Source of the DNA: a virus | Lineage: Duplodnaviria > Caudoviricetes | Direction: 5' to 3' (one strand) | Length of the DNA stretch: 64,000 nt | Virus record (IMG/VR): IMGVR_UViG_3300028624_000004 | Location: 64,001-128,000 of that record | Part shown: positions 4,807 through 62,887 of the stretch, piece after piece | Layout: each line of letters begins with the position of its first letter | Numbering within the stretch: position 1 is the first letter of the stretch | Translations under genes and position numbers: made by a program | Notes under the pieces: model-generated | Database searches by the model: none | What the model was told of the DNA's origin: nothing | What the model saw: only the letters and a program-made list of their open reading frames with translations

Positions 4807-5912
4807 TTACTAAAGATTCTCTCCTAAAGATGTATGAAGAAGCATCTAAAAAAGACGACTATAGTTGGAGTACCTATCAGCCACTCAATGTTGCTGGATA
4901 TGAGGCAACCGTTGGGCAGTCTGGAAGAATCTGTAAAGATAGGGCAGATGCTATTATAAAGCATATTAAAGAGAATCTCCCCACAGATTCCACCTTTGTT
5001 GATTGGGGGTGTAATCATGGTTATTTTATATTTGAGTTGGCAAAACATGGCTATATTGCAACAGGATTAGATAGAGAGAAGAAGTATATAGATGTTTGTA
5101 GGTTTGTAAATGAATCGTCTGGTTTAAATCCCAAGCCGAAGTTTTTCTGCGAAGATTTAACGCCATTGTCTATGGAGCAGCATGCCGCTAAAGCTGCTTT
5201 TTGTTTCTCTGTTTTACATCATGTTAAAGATAACAAGATAAAAATATTCGATACGTTCTCTAAGATATATAAAAATGCTTACATAGAGATGGACGGGGCA
5301 AACTATGGTTATGATTATCTGAGAGTATTTTATTGGGATTTACAACTTGTGTGTGAAGCAAATGACGGATATGGAAAAACCACTCGACGGAGAAAGACTT
5401 GGTTTTGCACTAACGAAACTTCCGATGCTGTATATGAAAACATCAAGATGAATAACTGTCTCGCCGGGCGCTCGGTTTTTCTTAAAAAACCTAAAGACGA
5501 TTCGCCCTTTACCGTTGTCAAGCGCGAATCGGTGAAATTCTCTCATACGTGGGTCAAGACCGATTTGAGTTACGAAGCAAGTGTTTATAAGAAATTGCAC
5601 AGTCCTTACATTCCGAAACTCATAACATATGAAGATGAAGATGAAGGTTTACGAAAAATGGAAATAGAATACATAGATAAGGAAACTGATCGGGGGTTTT
5701 CATATATGGAAATTATGGAGTGGCTTAGGAGCAATGGTCTGTTTATAATCGACATAAATGCCGATCAGTTTGTTAAGACCAAGAGCGGATATGTGCTGGT
5801 TGATTTGGAATCTATTGTGCCAACTGACGAAGTAGATGGTAGGTTACGTGGAAAACATTCTGTGAAAACATATGAGGAACAGGTTAAGTATCTTGGGGAT
5901 AGGTTGAAATGA
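4803..5912 (+). CDS. SAM methyltransferase fused to a kinase-like domain (WbdD-like glycan capping enzyme)
   Basis: VDWGCNHGYF SAM motif and FSVLHHV. C-terminal VVK...E...IPKL...EYID...IDINADQF...LVDLES resembles a protein-kinase-like fold. Confidence 0.7.
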   Translation: MITKDSLLKMYEEASKKDDYSWSTYQPLNVAGYEATVGQSGRICKDRADAIIKHIKENLPTDSTFVDWGCNHGYFIFELAKHGYIATGLDREKKYIDVCRFVNESSGLNPKPKFFCEDLTPLSMEQHAAKAAFCFSVLHHVKDNKIKIFDTFSKIYKNAYIEMDGANYGYDYLRVFYWDLQLVCEANDGYGKTTRRRKTWFCTNETSDAVYENIKMNNCLAGRSVFLKKPKDDSPFTVVKRESVKFSHTWVKTDLSYEASVYKKLHSPYIPKLITYEDEDEGLRKMEIEYIDKETDRGFSYMEIMEWLRSNGLFIIDINADQFVKTKSGYVLVDLESIVPTDEVDGRLRGKHSVKTYEEQVKYLGDRLK

Positions 5913-6640
5913 GGGATATTTGGCTCTATTGGGAAAATAAACCGGGTAAAAAAAAGCCAGAGTACCTGAATCTATGTCTCAGAACTATTCAAAAGAACTG
6001 TGGTCTTGGCTTTGATATTCGTGTACTTGATGAGAAGTCGGTTCTTGAGTATCTGCCAAATCTCAGACCAGAAATTGCAAAGTTTCCTTGTCTTGCTCAC
6101 AAGGCGGACTATATTCGAGCATATCTTCTTTACATACATGGCGGCGTTTGGTTTGATAGTGATAGTATATTACTTAAACCCCTTGCTCCTGTGTTTGACG
6201 ATATGGAAAAATCACAAACTGACTTTGTTGGTTGCGGGCGCTCTGGCAACCGCCCATCAATAGGATTTATGGCTGCCAAGAAAGGATGTAAATTACTTGA
6301 TCTATGGATTCGTGATATGGATGTTATCATAAACCATAGTATAGACTACAAGTTCCGTTGGACAGAGATAGGATATGATATTCTCTGGAAACATTCTGCG
6401 TCTTACAGATACAAACACTATGATTTTAAGAAGTGTATTCCATTCTACTCTAAATGGAAGGAAATATTCTTTACAACTGATACTGAATCTAAGAAAAAGT
6501 ATCTTAAGAGGATAACTGAAGATACTTTAATGGTTTATCTTTATAACGCAATGTTTCCAACATCTTTCAAGAATTTGACTGAACAAGAAGTTTTGGCAAG
6601 TAATTTTTTTATTTCTGATTTGCTTAGGAGCAATATATGA
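5909..6640 (+). CDS. GT32 / capsular polysaccharide synthesis-type glycosyltransferase
   Basis: IWLYW...KADYIR...LLYIHGGVWFDSD (DxD) signature. Confidence 0.85.
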   Translation: MRDIWLYWENKPGKKKPEYLNLCLRTIQKNCGLGFDIRVLDEKSVLEYLPNLRPEIAKFPCLAHKADYIRAYLLYIHGGVWFDSDSILLKPLAPVFDDMEKSQTDFVGCGRSGNRPSIGFMAAKKGCKLLDLWIRDMDVIINHSIDYKFRWTEIGYDILWKHSASYRYKHYDFKKCIPFYSKWKEIFFTTDTESKKKYLKRITEDTLMVYLYNAMFPTSFKNLTEQEVLASNFFISDLLRSNI

Positions 6641-57440: not shown

Positions 57441-57671
57441 ATGAGAACAGATAGAGTAGAACCCATAATGGTTATAAGAAAAGAAGTAAGGTTCCCAAAA
57501 CGGGAACCTTACTTTCGTGTTGATAGGGACGAAGATTCCCTTGATGATTCTATTAAGAAATATGTTGATATTGCCAAGAATTGTCCTATAGATAAGGAAG
57601 CCCTTGAAATGCTTTTGAGAATAGAGTTAGGAGACGATATAACAAATCAAATTAAAATATTCTATAAATAG
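57441..57671 (+). CDS. Hypothetical protein
   Basis: 76-aa ORF. Confidence 0.55.
   Translation: MRTDRVEPIMVIRKEVRFPKREPYFRVDRDEDSLDDSIKKYVDIAKNCPIDKEALEMLLRIELGDDITNQIKIFYK
57663..57670 (+). promoter_or_regulatory. T4-type late promoter motif TATAAATA
   Basis: Exact motif upstream of a GGAG RBS. Confidence 0.6.
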
Positions 57672-57688
57672 GTATGGAGTAACTTATT

Positions 57689-58240
57689 ATGGGATTCAAA
57701 AATTTCTATAAAGAAAGCGTTAGAAAGTCAATAATAAAGAGAGAGGCTGAAGGTGACTTTGGAGACGAAGCCCAAGCAATGAGTTCTGCCGAAATATCAT
57801 ACGCATACCCAAAAACAAACAAAAACAAATTAAAATGGTCAGAGGCTAGGGGATTTATAAAGCCAGATGGTAAAGTTGAAAGAATTGGGGATATGGGTCA
57901 TGAAGATTTCGCCAGAGATGTTGGTTATCCAATCACGGTGGACGGCAAGCTAGTTACTAAAAAGTTTCCTGGGTCAAAAACTCTTGCCAAATATACTGGT
58001 CTTGTTCGCTGGTCGCCAGAAACGGCTTCTTTCAGTGTATATCTTCCAATGACTCTGGAGCAAATAAAGACTATTAAAGAAATAGTCAAGTCTTATGGAT
58101 ATAAAGACTTAATGTTGGATTATCAAGACAAGAATGGGAACATGCAATTGATCGAATTCAACGATTCAGATCCTAGTAAATTCAATGCTAGAATGACAAA
58201 AGTCCAGAATGAAGTCAATGACAAGAAGTTTGGACAATAG
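57689..58240 (+). CDS. Late hypothetical protein, possible internal head protein
   Basis: MGFKNFYKES N-terminus; RGFIKPDG....H..FA motif. Confidence 0.7.
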   Translation: MGFKNFYKESVRKSIIKREAEGDFGDEAQAMSSAEISYAYPKTNKNKLKWSEARGFIKPDGKVERIGDMGHEDFARDVGYPITVDGKLVTKKFPGSKTLAKYTGLVRWSPETASFSVYLPMTLEQIKTIKEIVKSYGYKDLMLDYQDKNGNMQLIEFNDSDPSKFNARMTKVQNEVNDKKFGQ

Positions 58241-58246
58241 CGAATA

Positions 58247-59554
58247 TTAAGGCATCCACGGCATATCTGTTTTAGCCTCGTATTCCTTTTCTTCTTCTAT
58301 TTTTACTTTATTTAAGAAGCCAGAGTTACTAACACTATCAAACTCTTTTGCTTTTTCTTTTCTTTCTTGATATGCTTTGTATATGTTAGAAGAGGAACCA
58401 TTCATATACTTTCTTTTCCTATCTGTCTCATCGTCACTTACTTCAAATTCTATTATAAATTTTGTAAATAATCCCTCTTGGCTTTGGACGTCTATATATG
58501 CGCCCATTGATATTGCATAATCCATGCACATAGCAAGCCCAAGTCCGTGTGTGTCAACATGGTCGTCTTTGGTTGTGAAGTTTGGCGTAAATAATTGTTC
58601 CATGACCTTAGAAGAAATTCCCTTGCCGTTGTCTTCTACATAAAGAGATTTTTTAGAAGAATCGCCATATATTTTTATCTTTAATTCATCTCTCATATGG
58701 GAATTGTGGTCAATGGCATTATTGACTAAATTCATTAATATCTGATGAAGAAACATGGGGGAGTGACGACATAAGAAATCAAGGGAAGTATAATCAACTT
58801 CTATTTGTGACGGTCTTATATTTTTTCTTATTGAGGAATTCAATAAAGCTACAGAAACCATGGCTTTAATGGTGGATCCAACATTAGACCTATTCATATC
58901 ATATTTCTGAAGGTACTTTATATTCTTACTAAGATTATCTACAATATATATACACTGTTCGGCAGATGCTTCTATTTCTTGAATTTTATCTTGTATAAAC
59001 TTAAAGTCTTTGCCGTTAAGCTGGGTTTTCAGTGTTAGAAATTGCAACATCATATTGGAGACATTGCGAATTATTCCTAACCACGGAGCTACCTCATGAT
59101 TAACTCCAGATATGACATTCTTAAGGTTTCGAGAGTTGCTATGGGCTATGTTCAAGCGAAAGGAAATTTCTTCTTGCTTATCTTTTAAATGCTTCTTTTC
59201 CTTCTCTTCTTTGATTAAATCATCAAGTTCTTTTTGATGATAGAAAAAATCTTTTTTGGTTATATTAATGGCTTTAAATTTTTTATAGTTGATATAAAAA
59301 TATAAGAAGGATACGGTTAACGATATTACGCCATTAAGTATAGAAATTGTATCAAATAAGTTTTTAGACGCATCAATGACAGCCGATTGCTGTTCTTGAT
59401 ATACCATACTTCTAACTTGGCTCTCGTAATTTTTCTGTACGATATGACAGATTGAATACAGAGTTGTATATGACAACAAACAAAACAAAAAAGAAATTAA
59501 GATTGAATATCTTAATTTTCTTATTAACTTAAAAATTTCTTTAAAGGTTCCCAT
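58247..59554 (-). CDS. Membrane sensor histidine kinase
   Basis: Two TM helices; H-box GVNHEV; N-box LMNLVNNAIDH; G1 VEDNGKGI; F-box LFTPNFTTK; G2 GLGLAMC. Confidence 0.92.
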   Translation of the reverse strand: MGTFKEIFKLIRKLRYSILISFLFCLLSYTTLYSICHIVQKNYESQVRSMVYQEQQSAVIDASKNLFDTISILNGVISLTVSFLYFYINYKKFKAINITKKDFFYHQKELDDLIKEEKEKKHLKDKQEEISFRLNIAHSNSRNLKNVISGVNHEVAPWLGIIRNVSNMMLQFLTLKTQLNGKDFKFIQDKIQEIEASAEQCIYIVDNLSKNIKYLQKYDMNRSNVGSTIKAMVSVALLNSSIRKNIRPSQIEVDYTSLDFLCRHSPMFLHQILMNLVNNAIDHNSHMRDELKIKIYGDSSKKSLYVEDNGKGISSKVMEQLFTPNFTTKDDHVDTHGLGLAMCMDYAISMGAYIDVQSQEGLFTKFIIEFEVSDDETDRKRKYMNGSSSNIYKAYQERKEKAKEFDSVSNSGFLNKVKIEEEKEYEAKTDMPWMP

Positions 59555-59877
59555 AGTAAACTTTGTTTGCTGATGTAATAGTATTTTTTCTCTTCAAGAG
59601 TATTTAATACCTCGTGTTCAACGCTTCCCGTTATAAACATTATTTTACCAATATTGGACTTATTCTTATCAGCAAATTCAATTCCATTTCTACCATTTTG
59701 CAATTGAACATCTAGTATAGTATAATCGAACTGGTTGTGTGTCTTCAAAAGCTCTTCAGCTTCCTTATAGGTTTTTGCGTAGTGGATATCAATATTCCCA
59801 CTGTCTATGAACATCTTAATGTATTCTATAACTTCCTTAGCAAAAAAGCTATGGTCTTCTAAAAATAAAATTTTCAT
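59524..59877 (-). CDS. Single-domain response regulator (CheY-like receiver)
   Basis: ILFLED, phospho-acceptor ILDVQL, NGIEF, FITG, ISK. Confidence 0.88.
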   Translation of the reverse strand: MKILFLEDHSFFAKEVIEYIKMFIDSGNIDIHYAKTYKEAEELLKTHNQFDYTILDVQLQNGRNGIEFADKNKSNIGKIMFITGSVEHEVLNTLEEKKYYYISKQSLLWEPLKKFLS

Positions 59878-60305
59878 TACGGCGTCCCCATGATAATAGT
59901 TGCTATTGTTTTTATTATTTCCACAATATGTGGCGCTATTGCAACAGCTATAGCAGATATTATACCCACGACAAGGGTCTGGAAATTCCAGTACTTCCCT
60001 GCCATTTCCTTAAGCTTATTTTTCTTTGGCGGCTCAACTGTATTAATGTTCTGGACAATAACTGGAGCAACAGCAGTAGTGTTGCCATGTTCTCCATTAT
60101 CGTCAATAACATGAACTATTATCCCCTTAAGAATATCAGTTAGCTCCTTATATTGGTCACTCTGACGCTCTTCAGTGGTAAATTCATTTAAGATGTTGTG
60201 TATCTTAAACTTAAGATGGACAAGTTCGACAGAAGCCTTTTGCCACTTTGAAATCTCCGTGGGGAGGGCTGGTATGTTGGCTCGTGATGGATACTTCTTT
60301 CCCAT
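59877..60305 (-). CDS. Membrane protein with C-terminal TM segment (start 60305, MGKKYPSR...)
   Basis: GGGGGA RBS; TAATG overlap with the receiver gene; hydrophobic C-terminus. Confidence 0.75.
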   Translation of the reverse strand: MGKKYPSRANIPALPTEISKWQKASVELVHLKFKIHNILNEFTTEERQSDQYKELTDILKGIIVHVIDDNGEHGNTTAVAPVIVQNINTVEPPKKNKLKEMAGKYWNFQTLVVGIISAIAVAIAPHIVEIIKTIATIIMGTP

Positions 60306-60353
60306 TATTCCCCCATAATGATATACTATATTTATACTATTATGGGGGAATAA
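60305..60353 (-). promoter_or_regulatory. 15-bp perfect inverted repeat sequestering the RBS, with a TATAAATA late promoter (60329-60336) in the loop
   Basis: TTATTCCCCCATAAT (60305-60319) / ATTATGGGGGAATAA (60339-60353). Confidence 0.75.
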
Positions 60354-60370
60354 ATGTTTCAATTGTTACA

Positions 60371-60745
60371 TTATTCTTTGCCACCATGTTGGTTGCGTCT
60401 TCTTTCGATTATATTATCCCTTACTCTTTCTCTCAATGGCTCATTATTCTCACGACGGTCCTCTAATCTTTCGGGAAGGTTTCTTGCTTCTGGGAACAAT
60501 ACGCCATTTTTAGCTATTATCATTCTCATAACGTGAACCTGTAGCTTTGGGTGTCCTTTAAGGACTTCTTTCAACTCTTGTATTTTGACTTCCATTGCTT
60601 TACGGTGTTCTTCCCTAAGCTTCTGGATTTCTAGTACCTTTCCCTTTACTTCCTGTGGTAATGTTACTTCTGGTTCGTTTGCGACCTCACATGAGTATGT
60701 TGAGGCTACTAATAAGAACGCTAGTAATGTTATGATATATTTCAT
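60371..60745 (-). CDS. Secreted helical protein
   Basis: Signal peptide MKYIITLLAFLLVASTYS-C; AAGGAG RBS. Confidence 0.75.
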   Translation of the reverse strand: MKYIITLLAFLLVASTYSCEVANEPEVTLPQEVKGKVLEIQKLREEHRKAMEVKIQELKEVLKGHPKLQVHVMRMIIAKNGVLFPEARNLPERLEDRRENNEPLRERVRDNIIERRRNQHGGKE

Positions 60746-60963
60746 ATATTATCTCCTTACCCATATTTACGCACAATTCTTCAGTTTATTAATGTAGTAT
60801 CTTTCCTCACTTGATAAAAGATTATAAACTATAGTGTTTTTATTTCCTACATAACACATAAATTAAATACATTTTTAGGGGTATTTTTAGGTTACTGGTA
60901 TGGTGGATTTTAGGACTTGACTTCGGCTCTGAAGTCATAGAATATACTAGTAAGGAACTCTTT

Positions 60964-61299
60964 ATGAACCCACCTGATGGTATTCCTCCCAAAGCACTCA
61001 ATAGACCCATCATGCCGTCTGAGGTTGTTAACCTCAAATGTAAGCATATTCCTGATATTGTTTTCAATATCTTCAACGACCACATTGTGTCAGCATGGGA
61101 TGGTAGAAAAGCAATTGTAAGGCAGGAACATGTCGTTAGTGCGCTTTTGGTTACTGAGAAGTTTACGCGAGAAGAGATTTTCCGTAAGCACATATTGGAC
61201 ATAGAAGAGATTTATAGTCGGGAAGGCTGGAAAGTCGAATTCGACAAGCCCGGTTATAACGAGGGGTATGGGGCATTTTGGACCTTTACCAAGGCTTAA
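60964..61299 (+). CDS. Conserved phage hypothetical protein
   Basis: IP..VF..FN..I and LD.E..Y...GWKV.FDKPGYNE motifs. Confidence 0.75.
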   Translation: MNPPDGIPPKALNRPIMPSEVVNLKCKHIPDIVFNIFNDHIVSAWDGRKAIVRQEHVVSALLVTEKFTREEIFRKHILDIEEIYSREGWKVEFDKPGYNEGYGAFWTFTKA

Positions 61300-61300
61300 C

Positions 61301-61720
61301 ATGAACTACGACGAGGATTATGTCAAGGATCTGGAACTCCGGATTGAGCGTCAACAGGAGCAGATTGATAAATACTCTATGTTCATCAAGCGACTTGACG
61401 AACTCAAAATCAAAATGTCGATGCAGGACTGTTCGCAGTTCATTAACCCAAAGGCATTTATCAAGTGGCTTGAAAATAGTAGCAAGTGGAAGCTATTTGA
61501 CACGATTGAAGATTCTCATGGTAAGACTGGGCAATTTCGTCATGCAAACGGTCGTAAGTTCTCTATTCGCGTTAAAGCATATGACAAGGGGGCAGAACAG
61601 GCTCAGTTACTTGATGTAGTCAATGCATTTCAGCATGTATGGGACACATGGCTTTATGACCACAAAGGATGTGGTGTTATTTCGCTGATTATTGATATAA
61701 TGGAGTACGAAGATGATTAA
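61301..61720 (+). CDS. Hypothetical protein
   Basis: Start at 61301, immediately after the upstream stop. Confidence 0.65.
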   Translation: MNYDEDYVKDLELRIERQQEQIDKYSMFIKRLDELKIKMSMQDCSQFINPKAFIKWLENSSKWKLFDTIEDSHGKTGQFRHANGRKFSIRVKAYDKGAEQAQLLDVVNAFQHVWDTWLYDHKGCGVISLIIDIMEYEDD

Positions 61721-61937
61721 TGACCCTCTACAGGAACTTGTTAAGCATTGTCACTCAATAGGGTTAAAATCCTATTATGAACTGGCATGTCACGCTGCTT
61801 CAAAGAAGCTGGCGGTTTATGTATTTCGTGAGGAAACTTATAAAAAGTTCCTTGGGCGAATACCCAAAAGTATCCAGGGGTTTGATGTAGAATATAAATT
61901 AGCAAGGAAATATCAAGGACAAATATATGTCAGATAA
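61713..61937 (+). CDS. Hypothetical protein
   Basis: GGAG RBS. Confidence 0.55.
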   Translation: MINDPLQELVKHCHSIGLKSYYELACHAASKKLAVYVFREETYKKFLGRIPKSIQGFDVEYKLARKYQGQIYVR

Positions 61938-61954
61938 TCTATATAAATAAGGAT

Positions 61955-62887
61955 ATGCCAAAGATAATAACAACCGAAGATTTCATACGAAGAGCAATCG
62001 AAAAGCATGGCGACAAGTATGACTACAAAAATACAGAGTATAAAGGATCACGCAGTAATATTACCATAACATGTAAGAAACACAATGTTTCATTTTTGCA
62101 ATCTGCCCACCATCACTTATCGGGAAAAGGTGGATGTAAAATATGTGCCTCCAACACTAATAGATCAAATGCAGAAACCTTTATAAAGAGGGCGATGGAG
62201 ATACATAATCAAAAGTATGATTACAGCAATGTAGTGTATGAAAATAACGAAAAGCGAGTTTGCATTATATGCGACAAGCACGGTGAATTTTGGCAGTCTC
62301 CTGGGAATCATATTAGTGGTAGGGGATGTCCTGAATGTGCAAAAATTACTATTGGAAGACAAAAGATATCAAACACCAAGGATTTCATTCATAAAGCAAT
62401 GGAAAAACATGGAAACCTTTACAACTATTCAGTGGTAGAATATAAGAATTCACGTGAAGTAGTTGATATTATATGTCCAGAACATGGTACATTTCGCCAA
62501 ACACCAAATTTACACCTGTGTGGATCGGGATGTCCTAAATGCATAAAACAAAGTAGCGGCGAAACTTTCATAAGAAAATTTCTTGAGAGTAATAATATAA
62601 AGTTCATAGAGCAGGTAAAGTTTCCGACATGTAGGCATATAAAGTTGTTATCTTTTGATTTTCTTATTGAAGGTAAAAATGTCCTCATTGAATATGACGG
62701 CGAACAACACTTTAAACCTGTGAAATATTTTGGAGGCAATGTTAAATTTGAATACCGTAAGAAACTAGATTCTATAAAAAGTGAATGGGCGAAGAATAAC
62801 AGATATAACCTCGTTCGCATACCTTATGACATGTCACATAATGATATTGTTGAAAAGTTATATAATACGTTAGTTTTTAGTGCTTGA
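61955..62887 (+). CDS. Putative homing endonuclease: zinc-binding repeats plus PD-(D/E)xK nuclease
   Basis: Three FI..A..KHG.KYDY...I.C..HG.F.Q....H..G.GC..C repeats; LSFDF...IEYDGEQH; TATAAATA at 61942-61949. Confidence 0.8.
   Translation: MPKIITTEDFIRRAIEKHGDKYDYKNTEYKGSRSNITITCKKHNVSFLQSAHHHLSGKGGCKICASNTNRSNAETFIKRAMEIHNQKYDYSNVVYENNEKRVCIICDKHGEFWQSPGNHISGRGCPECAKITIGRQKISNTKDFIHKAMEKHGNLYNYSVVEYKNSREVVDIICPEHGTFRQTPNLHLCGSGCPKCIKQSSGETFIRKFLESNNIKFIEQVKFPTCRHIKLLSFDFLIEGKNVLIEYDGEQHFKPVKYFGGNVKFEYRKKLDSIKSEWAKNNRYNLVRIPYDMSHNDIVEKLYNTLVFSA

Follow-up and report, generated by a model that had tools for sequence, protein, structure and literature searches.

A perfect 15-bp inverted repeat in front of the gene P0001 is a real and conserved element, and it very probably serves as a T4-type late translation switch, in which long transcripts would fold the ribosome-binding site of P0001 into a hairpin and late transcripts would begin inside the hairpin loop. 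The window, that is, the whole stretch of 64,000 nucleotides that was analyzed, is part of a 177.5-kb IMG/VR virus record (G000) estimated to be 76% complete; positions refer to the window unless the record or another locus is named.

The two arms of the repeat, at 60305-60319 and 60339-60353, were found to be fully complementary when the sequence was read directly. On the minus strand, the order from the stop codon of the preceding gene, P0002, to the start codon of P0001 is TAA-TGTAACAATTGAAACAT-TTATTCCCCCATAAT-AGTATAAATATAGTATATC-ATTATGGGGGAATAA-TG. The 5′ arm (TTATTCCCCCATAAT, as RNA UUAUUCCCCCAUAAU; 60353 to 60339, minus strand) is the anti-Shine-Dalgarno (SD) strand and is carried solely by transcripts begun upstream. 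The 3′ arm (ATTATGGGGGAATAA, as RNA AUUAUGGGGGAAUAA; 60319 to 60305, minus strand) contains the SD sequence GGGGGA (60314 to 60309), and its last A is the A of the P0001 ATG (60305-60303). Between the arms lies a loop of 19 nt (AGTATAAATATAGTATATC; 60338 to 60320, minus strand), which forms an inner 5-bp stem (GUAUA/UAUAU) with an apical loop of 7 nt and which harbors the octamer TATAAATA (60336 to 60329, minus strand); this late promoter box of the T4 type precedes the ATG by 23 nt. The stem is followed by GGGAAAGAAG and not by a U-tract. An earlier note, made from the letters of the window, had given the coordinates and the sequence of the perfect repeat exactly, which was confirmed in every detail; the SD and the start-codon A in the 3′ arm, the promoter box in the 19-nt loop, and the lack of a U-tract were likewise all as it had claimed.

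No inverted repeat in the window is longer than this hairpin, which, together with the inner 5-bp stem, extends to 21 nt at 90% around the 7-nt loop. Perfect 15-bp inverted repeats with a loop of 3-60 nt occurred once in the window and not at all in 60 first-order Markov sequences. When folded as RNA, the minus strand reached -25.4 kcal/mol (z -4.7), and none of 200 shuffled sequences was equally stable. In this fold, all bases between -14 and +1 relative to the P0001 start codon are paired, and the hairpin thus occludes the ribosome-binding site. Among the leaders of the 226 genes called in the genome, that of P0001 ranked fifth by folding energy, and its ribosome-binding site had a pairing probability of 0.93, the top value among the twelve most stable leaders listed. 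A search of Rfam gave no match at the gathering score, only sub-threshold matches of a generic hairpin kind to plant miRNA models (29 bits versus 93.5).

P0001 (59877..60305, minus strand) encodes a protein of 142 aa whose N-terminal helical domain is conserved and whose C-terminal part contains a single transmembrane helix. According to a low-confidence model, the conserved N-terminal part is a predicted helical hairpin, which is connected to the transmembrane helix by a variable linker; the pLDDT of the AlphaFold model (59.7) was too low for a fold search. No family in Pfam or PHROG was matched, neither holin nor lysis families among them, and the ESM Atlas yielded no usable match. The start codon of the gene is firm. 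A longer ORF could be opened at a TTG at 60362, but this ORF is not the gene because nine homologues (50-78% identity) start with the same M-[PGV]-KK-Y at the position of the ATG at 60305. For two more homologues, the called proteins carry the N-terminal extensions MYTHGGL-M and MCHGGI-M, from which a CAYGGNGGN immediately ahead of the true start can be deduced. This string matches the CAUGG(G/A)GG of the conserved arm and indirectly suggests that the arm is conserved in these two homologues also. The 3′ arm of the window, like that of one related locus (L003; see below), also holds a mini-ORF of three codons, AUG GGG GAA UAA (60303-60316, minus strand), whose stop codon overlaps the real start (UAAUG). 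This mini-ORF is probably incidental, as the other related locus (L004) does without it.

Judged by its gene content, the source of this DNA is a distant, uncultured T4-like phage. The record encodes a major capsid protein of the Gp23 family (E 2.5e-95) and a gp55-family late sigma factor of 153 aa (G000:16792-17253), which matched phrog_234 (E 2.7e-16; G000:16843-17190) and phrog_12791, annotated as "sigma factor for late transcription" (E 1.9e-18). Using T4 gp55 itself as the query against the record resulted in no match, and the late sigma factor of this phage is therefore only distantly related to its T4 namesake. Neither the gp45 clamp (Pfam PF02916) nor MotA (Pfam PF09114) was found in the 76%-complete record, which, with part of the genome missing, does not argue that the phage lacks them. 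Comparison with 50,697 phage records gave no match at the DNA level and none for the tail-fibre protein.

The octamer in the hairpin loop is not confined to this site. Throughout the genome, 29 of the 36 occurrences of TATAAATA have a same-strand gene start 4-40 nt downstream, usually behind a clear SD, compared with 156 of 1147 sites (14%) for permuted 8-mers (n = 55). Single-mismatch variants altered at the first base retained this bias best (AATAAATA, 5/11; GATAAATA, 8/19), and the variant TATAAATC showed a weak positional bias (5/23). On this evidence, which is positional, TATAAATA behaves as a T4-type gene-proximal late promoter box in this genome, and the 23 nt that separate it from the ATG of P0001 correspond to the typical box-to-start distance. 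At two sites, the octamer is found only 5 nt before a called ATG, namely, that of an HNH endonuclease gene (61942-61949, plus strand) and that of a second gene (G000 138773-138780, minus strand), both with similar leaders (TATAAATAAGGATATGCC and TATAAATAAAGGCATGCC, respectively); either these genes have leaderless late mRNAs or their starts were mis-called. A sigma-70-type promoter, TTGAAA-17-TAGTAT (60362 to 60334, minus strand), overlaps TATAAATA and would also start transcription in the loop. It was rejected, as its -10 element loses the key A in both relatives (TGATAT in L003 and TCGTAT in L004) and the density of such matches is at background.

A metagenome scan identified two related loci, L003 (78% protein identity) and L004 (52%); searches of viral contigs for related loci with P0001, with the kinase described below, and with the alignment A1 gave no relatives. 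The corresponding stretches read ...TTGAAACATTATTTCTCCCATAATGATATAAATAACATATGTACATTATGGGGGAATAATG (L003) and ...TTGTAACACTTCCCTCCACCATGTCGTATAAATAATACATGCATGGAGGGAAGATG (L004), and both retain the order of P0002 homologue, 5′ arm, TATAAATA, 3′ arm with SD, and ATG. The distance between the P0002 stop codon and the stem is 17 nt in the window and 14 and 22 nt in the relatives. Leader positions -1 to -10 (counted from the AUG) are paired in all three loci. Relative to the window, L004 contains four double compensatory changes, at -1 (A-U to G-C), -2 (U-A to A-U), -4 (A-U to G-C), and -7 (G-C to A-U), and L003 contains one change of G-C to G-U. Covariation in related phages, which had been put forward as a check of the hairpin, was thus observed across the three loci, with stems of equal stability (-24.3 kcal/mol for L003 and -23.3 kcal/mol for L004). 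Inside the loop, TATAAATA is unchanged in all three loci while the remaining bases diverge, and the distance from box to ATG (19-24 nt) is like that at the 29 gene-proximal sites. With n = 3 sequences, there is good, though not statistical, evidence that the hairpin is maintained by selection in the relatives.

Directly 5′ of the hairpin, between it and the P0002 stop codon, a tandem of heptamers is conserved as well: TGTAACA-AT-TGAAACA in the window (60355..60370, minus strand), TGAAACA-CT-TGAAACA in L003 (2869-2885), and TGTAACG-CT-TGTAACA in L004 (491-506). The pattern TGWAACR-N2-TGWAACA, present at this place in all three loci, occurs once in the 177.5-kb genome; it may be a binding site for a protein or an RNA that adds a second layer of control.

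We consider it likely that the element works as a temporal translation switch of the T4 type. Transcripts begun upstream of P0002, which would be the earlier ones, would traverse the hairpin of approximately -25 kcal/mol, and because its 3′ arm contains both the SD and the start codon, ribosomes would be blocked from initiating at P0001 on this long form. Ribosomes terminating at P0002 would not open the stem because the stop codon, at a distance of 17 nt, is too far away. Late in infection, RNA polymerase carrying the gp55-type sigma factor would start at TATAAATA in the loop, ~18 nt before the ATG. The late box of T4 promoters is located at about -13 to -6; by this rule, the late transcription start of P0001 is predicted ~6 nt past the box, at 60322..60324 (minus strand). 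Mapped 5′ ends of T4 gene e transcripts are available for comparison (PMC3014915, Fig. 5 legend). As this predicted start comes after the entire 5′ arm, late mRNA would lack the masking arm, its ribosome site would be free, and P0001 would be translated. Folding of both transcript forms, also put forward beforehand as a check, was in line with this geometry: -25.4 kcal/mol for the long form versus -4.2 kcal/mol for the predicted late form, with predicted late forms of -3.7 (L003) and -2.0 kcal/mol (L004) in the relatives.

Where the long transcript begins is less sharply defined. No terminator was found between P0002 and P0001, so transcripts of P0002 must carry the full hairpin. P0002 has no TATAAATA box upstream and is therefore probably not a gp55 gene; CGTAAATA, also upstream of P0002, was dismissed as a late box because the G at its position 2 goes along with a lack of positional bias in the genome (TGTAAATA, 1/11). 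A minus-strand ORF of 120 aa further upstream (60840-61202) was considered as a member of the operon and discarded as spurious, the conserved gene at this place being a plus-strand ORF of 111 aa (60964-61299; 61% identity to L003:2030-2362). Since the plus-strand ORF is real, the minus-strand unit begins with P0002, and 60746..60963 is a divergent intergenic region, which must hold the promoter or promoters of the long transcript. The earlier note had proposed the TATAAT at 60826 to 60821 (minus strand) in this region as the early promoter. The string does exist, but it lacks a usable -35 element, is absent from the matches of the promoter scan, and has no exact TATAAT counterpart in the relatives, which have loosely similar -10-like strings at this position. 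In the promoter scan of 57500-62000, nothing stood out convincingly as an early or middle promoter of the long form, and sigma-70-type matches in this range were at background (19 found and 18.0 expected). Approximately 50 nt upstream of the P0002 start, the window (60793-60806, minus strand) and L004 (128-141) have GGAAAGATACTACA in common, and L003 has GGTGATATTCCACA at the same place, within a small hairpin. This region may hold the -10 element (GATACT or GATATT) of the promoter for the long transcript.

Other explanations for the hairpin start from the same features. It could be a constitutive translational attenuator, or an element of mRNA stability, on a single class of transcripts, in which case TATAAATA in the loop would be inactive and P0001 would be kept low whenever P0002 is transcribed. 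Structure and occlusion are certain, whereas promoter activity is what we infer, and 7 of the 36 TATAAATA sites lack a same-strand gene start 4-40 nt downstream, all of which fits an attenuator. The explanation is nevertheless unlikely, given that the box is invariant in three of three loops in which the other bases diverge, that its spacing of 19-24 nt to the ATG matches the other 29 gene-proximal sites, and that the phage encodes a gp55-type sigma factor. The same palindrome could also function as DNA, that is, as an operator at which a bound regulator occludes the late promoter. I-TevI of T4 represses its own late promoter in this way, by binding an operator that overlaps it (PMC2988022), and the repeat described here is a perfect palindrome centred on the promoter, with the conserved TGWAACR tandem heptamers as a possible protein site next to it. 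What is kept among the three loci, however, is the complementarity of the arms and not their sequence (four double changes in L004 and the G-U in L003). Such changes are a hallmark of pairing within RNA rather than of sequence-specific half-sites, and the exact coincidence of the 3′ arm with the SD and the start codon in all three loci also speaks against an operator, which we regard as improbable.

A very stable stem-loop 17 nt past the stop codon of P0002 might furthermore be expected to terminate transcription of this gene or to protect its 3′ end. Termination is rejected because a U-tract is missing at all three loci, and the hairpin is absent from the terminator-scan list; a protecting stem would have no reason to contain the SD and ATG of the next gene plus an invariant promoter box. 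A role in P0002 3′-end formation or protection is thus very improbable. The strand to which the fold belongs cannot be read from folding energies, which are indecisive in this regard: the plus (antisense) strand folds about equally (-24.8, -20.7, and -26.2 kcal/mol at the three loci), as would be the case if the conserved structure were that of an antisense RNA restraining the operon. The strand was therefore assigned by SD, ATG, and promoter orientation. The plus strand carries neither a promoter box nor a gene at this place, TATAAATA points in the same direction as the gene at each of the three loci, and the G-U pairs (in L003 and in the inner stem of the window) would turn into A-C mismatches on the plus strand, which makes an antisense RNA very unlikely. 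The temporal switch on the minus-strand mRNA is the reading retained here.

P0001 is located within a set of genes that suggests a function in signaling. P0002 (60371..60745, minus strand), a charged helical protein of 124 aa with a signal peptide, is conserved in the relatives too. Downstream of P0001, a stand-alone CheY-like receiver gene (59524..59877, minus strand) starts within the stop of P0001 (TAATG at 59877), has its own GGGGA SD, and encodes a protein without output domain. It is followed by a histidine kinase gene (58247..59554, minus strand), which shares 31 nt with the receiver gene and lacks an SD, so its translation probably depends on coupling. The kinase has HATPase_c, an H-box, and two N-terminal TM helices; the loop of ~28 aa between these helices is of the intramembrane-sensing type. 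Receiver homologues were found on contigs of 2728, 6037, 2607, and 2720 bp, the same sizes as those of contigs with P0001 homologues, from which it follows, indirectly, that the linkage of P0001 and receiver is conserved.

Through the TAATG overlap and the overlap of receiver and kinase genes, late transcription and translation of P0001 would probably raise the receiver and the histidine kinase too. The earlier note had gone further and proposed that the whole signaling operon is silenced early. This is an extrapolation because the hairpin directly masks P0001 only and the receiver gene carries its own SD. Nor does it follow, as had also been proposed, that the first product is harmful if made early in the way of lysis proteins: in T4, late proteins that are harmless (soc, 25, and 26; PMC2988022) are under the control of the same device, and P0001 matches no holin or lysis family. 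P0001, the secreted P0002, the receiver, and the histidine kinase may form one envelope-sensing module. It is a speculative and rather unlikely extension of this notion that the phage possesses its own membrane sensor module, built from a secreted protein, a membrane protein anchored by its C terminus, a receiver of the CheY type, and an intramembrane-type histidine kinase, that the switch confines a key component of it to the late phase, and that this module senses the state of the envelope or the infection late and tunes the timing of lysis or the response to superinfection. If true, such a late sensor module would be a signaling analogue of lysis inhibition in T4.

A leader hairpin of the same kind, that of T4 gene e (lysozyme), was reportedly described by McPheeters et al. 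The 3′ arm of the T4 e hairpin contains SD and AUG, TATAAATA is situated inside the hairpin, and no U-tract follows, as in the window; late transcripts of e likewise lack the 5′ arm, and the gene is likewise positioned downstream of a gene with read-through transcripts. Our own fold of the T4 e leader (L006:2486-2560) had the same topology at -14.9 kcal/mol, which agrees with the layout that the earlier note had given for e and I-TevI, as do the published accounts (PMC3014915 and PMC2988022). Compared with T4 e, the stem described here is longer and much more stable (-25.4 versus -14.9 kcal/mol), the leader has a single late box where that of e has two, and the gated gene encodes not a lysis enzyme but a C-terminally anchored membrane protein without known family, which heads a receiver/kinase pair.

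The device is documented for e, I-TevI, I-TevII, I-TevIII, segB, Aeh1 mobE, soc, 25, and 26 (PMC3014915 and PMC2988022). The late-promoter and RBS-sequestering hairpins of the homing endonuclease genes of T-even phages (I-TevI, I-TevII, I-TevIII, segB, and Aeh1 mobE; PMC2988022, Fig. 5) have the same logic and geometry as the element in front of P0001, but P0001 does not encode a mobile endonuclease, and there is no sign of an overlapping operator that would serve autorepression. A second case of a late promoter in a hairpin within the same genome (L009 ~1067-1111, G000 ~160766-160810, minus strand; long form -15.7 and short form 0.0 kcal/mol) precedes a gene for a 329-aa Zn-finger protein that resembles homing endonucleases by weak PHROG matches, and in this respect parallels T4 I-TevI and segB (PMC2988022). 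A hairpin of 8 bp (CCUCUGUA/UACAGAGG; L010 ~1425-1465), preceding a nucleotide-sugar-epimerase-like gene (G000 gene 5037-6374, minus strand), presents TATAAT within the loop, with the SD forming part of the 3′ arm, that is, the same logic with a sigma-70-type -10 box.

The T4 late genes soc, 25, 26, and 49 also have leaders that mask the ribosome-binding site when the transcript is long (PMC2988022, section 12), which illustrates that the device serves ordinary late genes and not toxic ones alone; theirs are virion and packaging genes, whereas the downstream genes in the window encode signaling proteins. The regulatory mechanism itself is already known, and nothing new is added to it here; its setting before a set of signaling genes is unusual. 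The T4 device of a promoter inside an anti-SD hairpin would thus persist in an uncultured T4-like lineage that is very distant from T4 itself, together with a box, TATAAATA, that is identical to that of T4. For the conserved membrane protein without known family that heads the receiver/kinase pair of this phage, the analysis fixes the start codon and points to late expression as the likely class, which helps in framing experiments on the use that a lytic phage makes of a two-component system.
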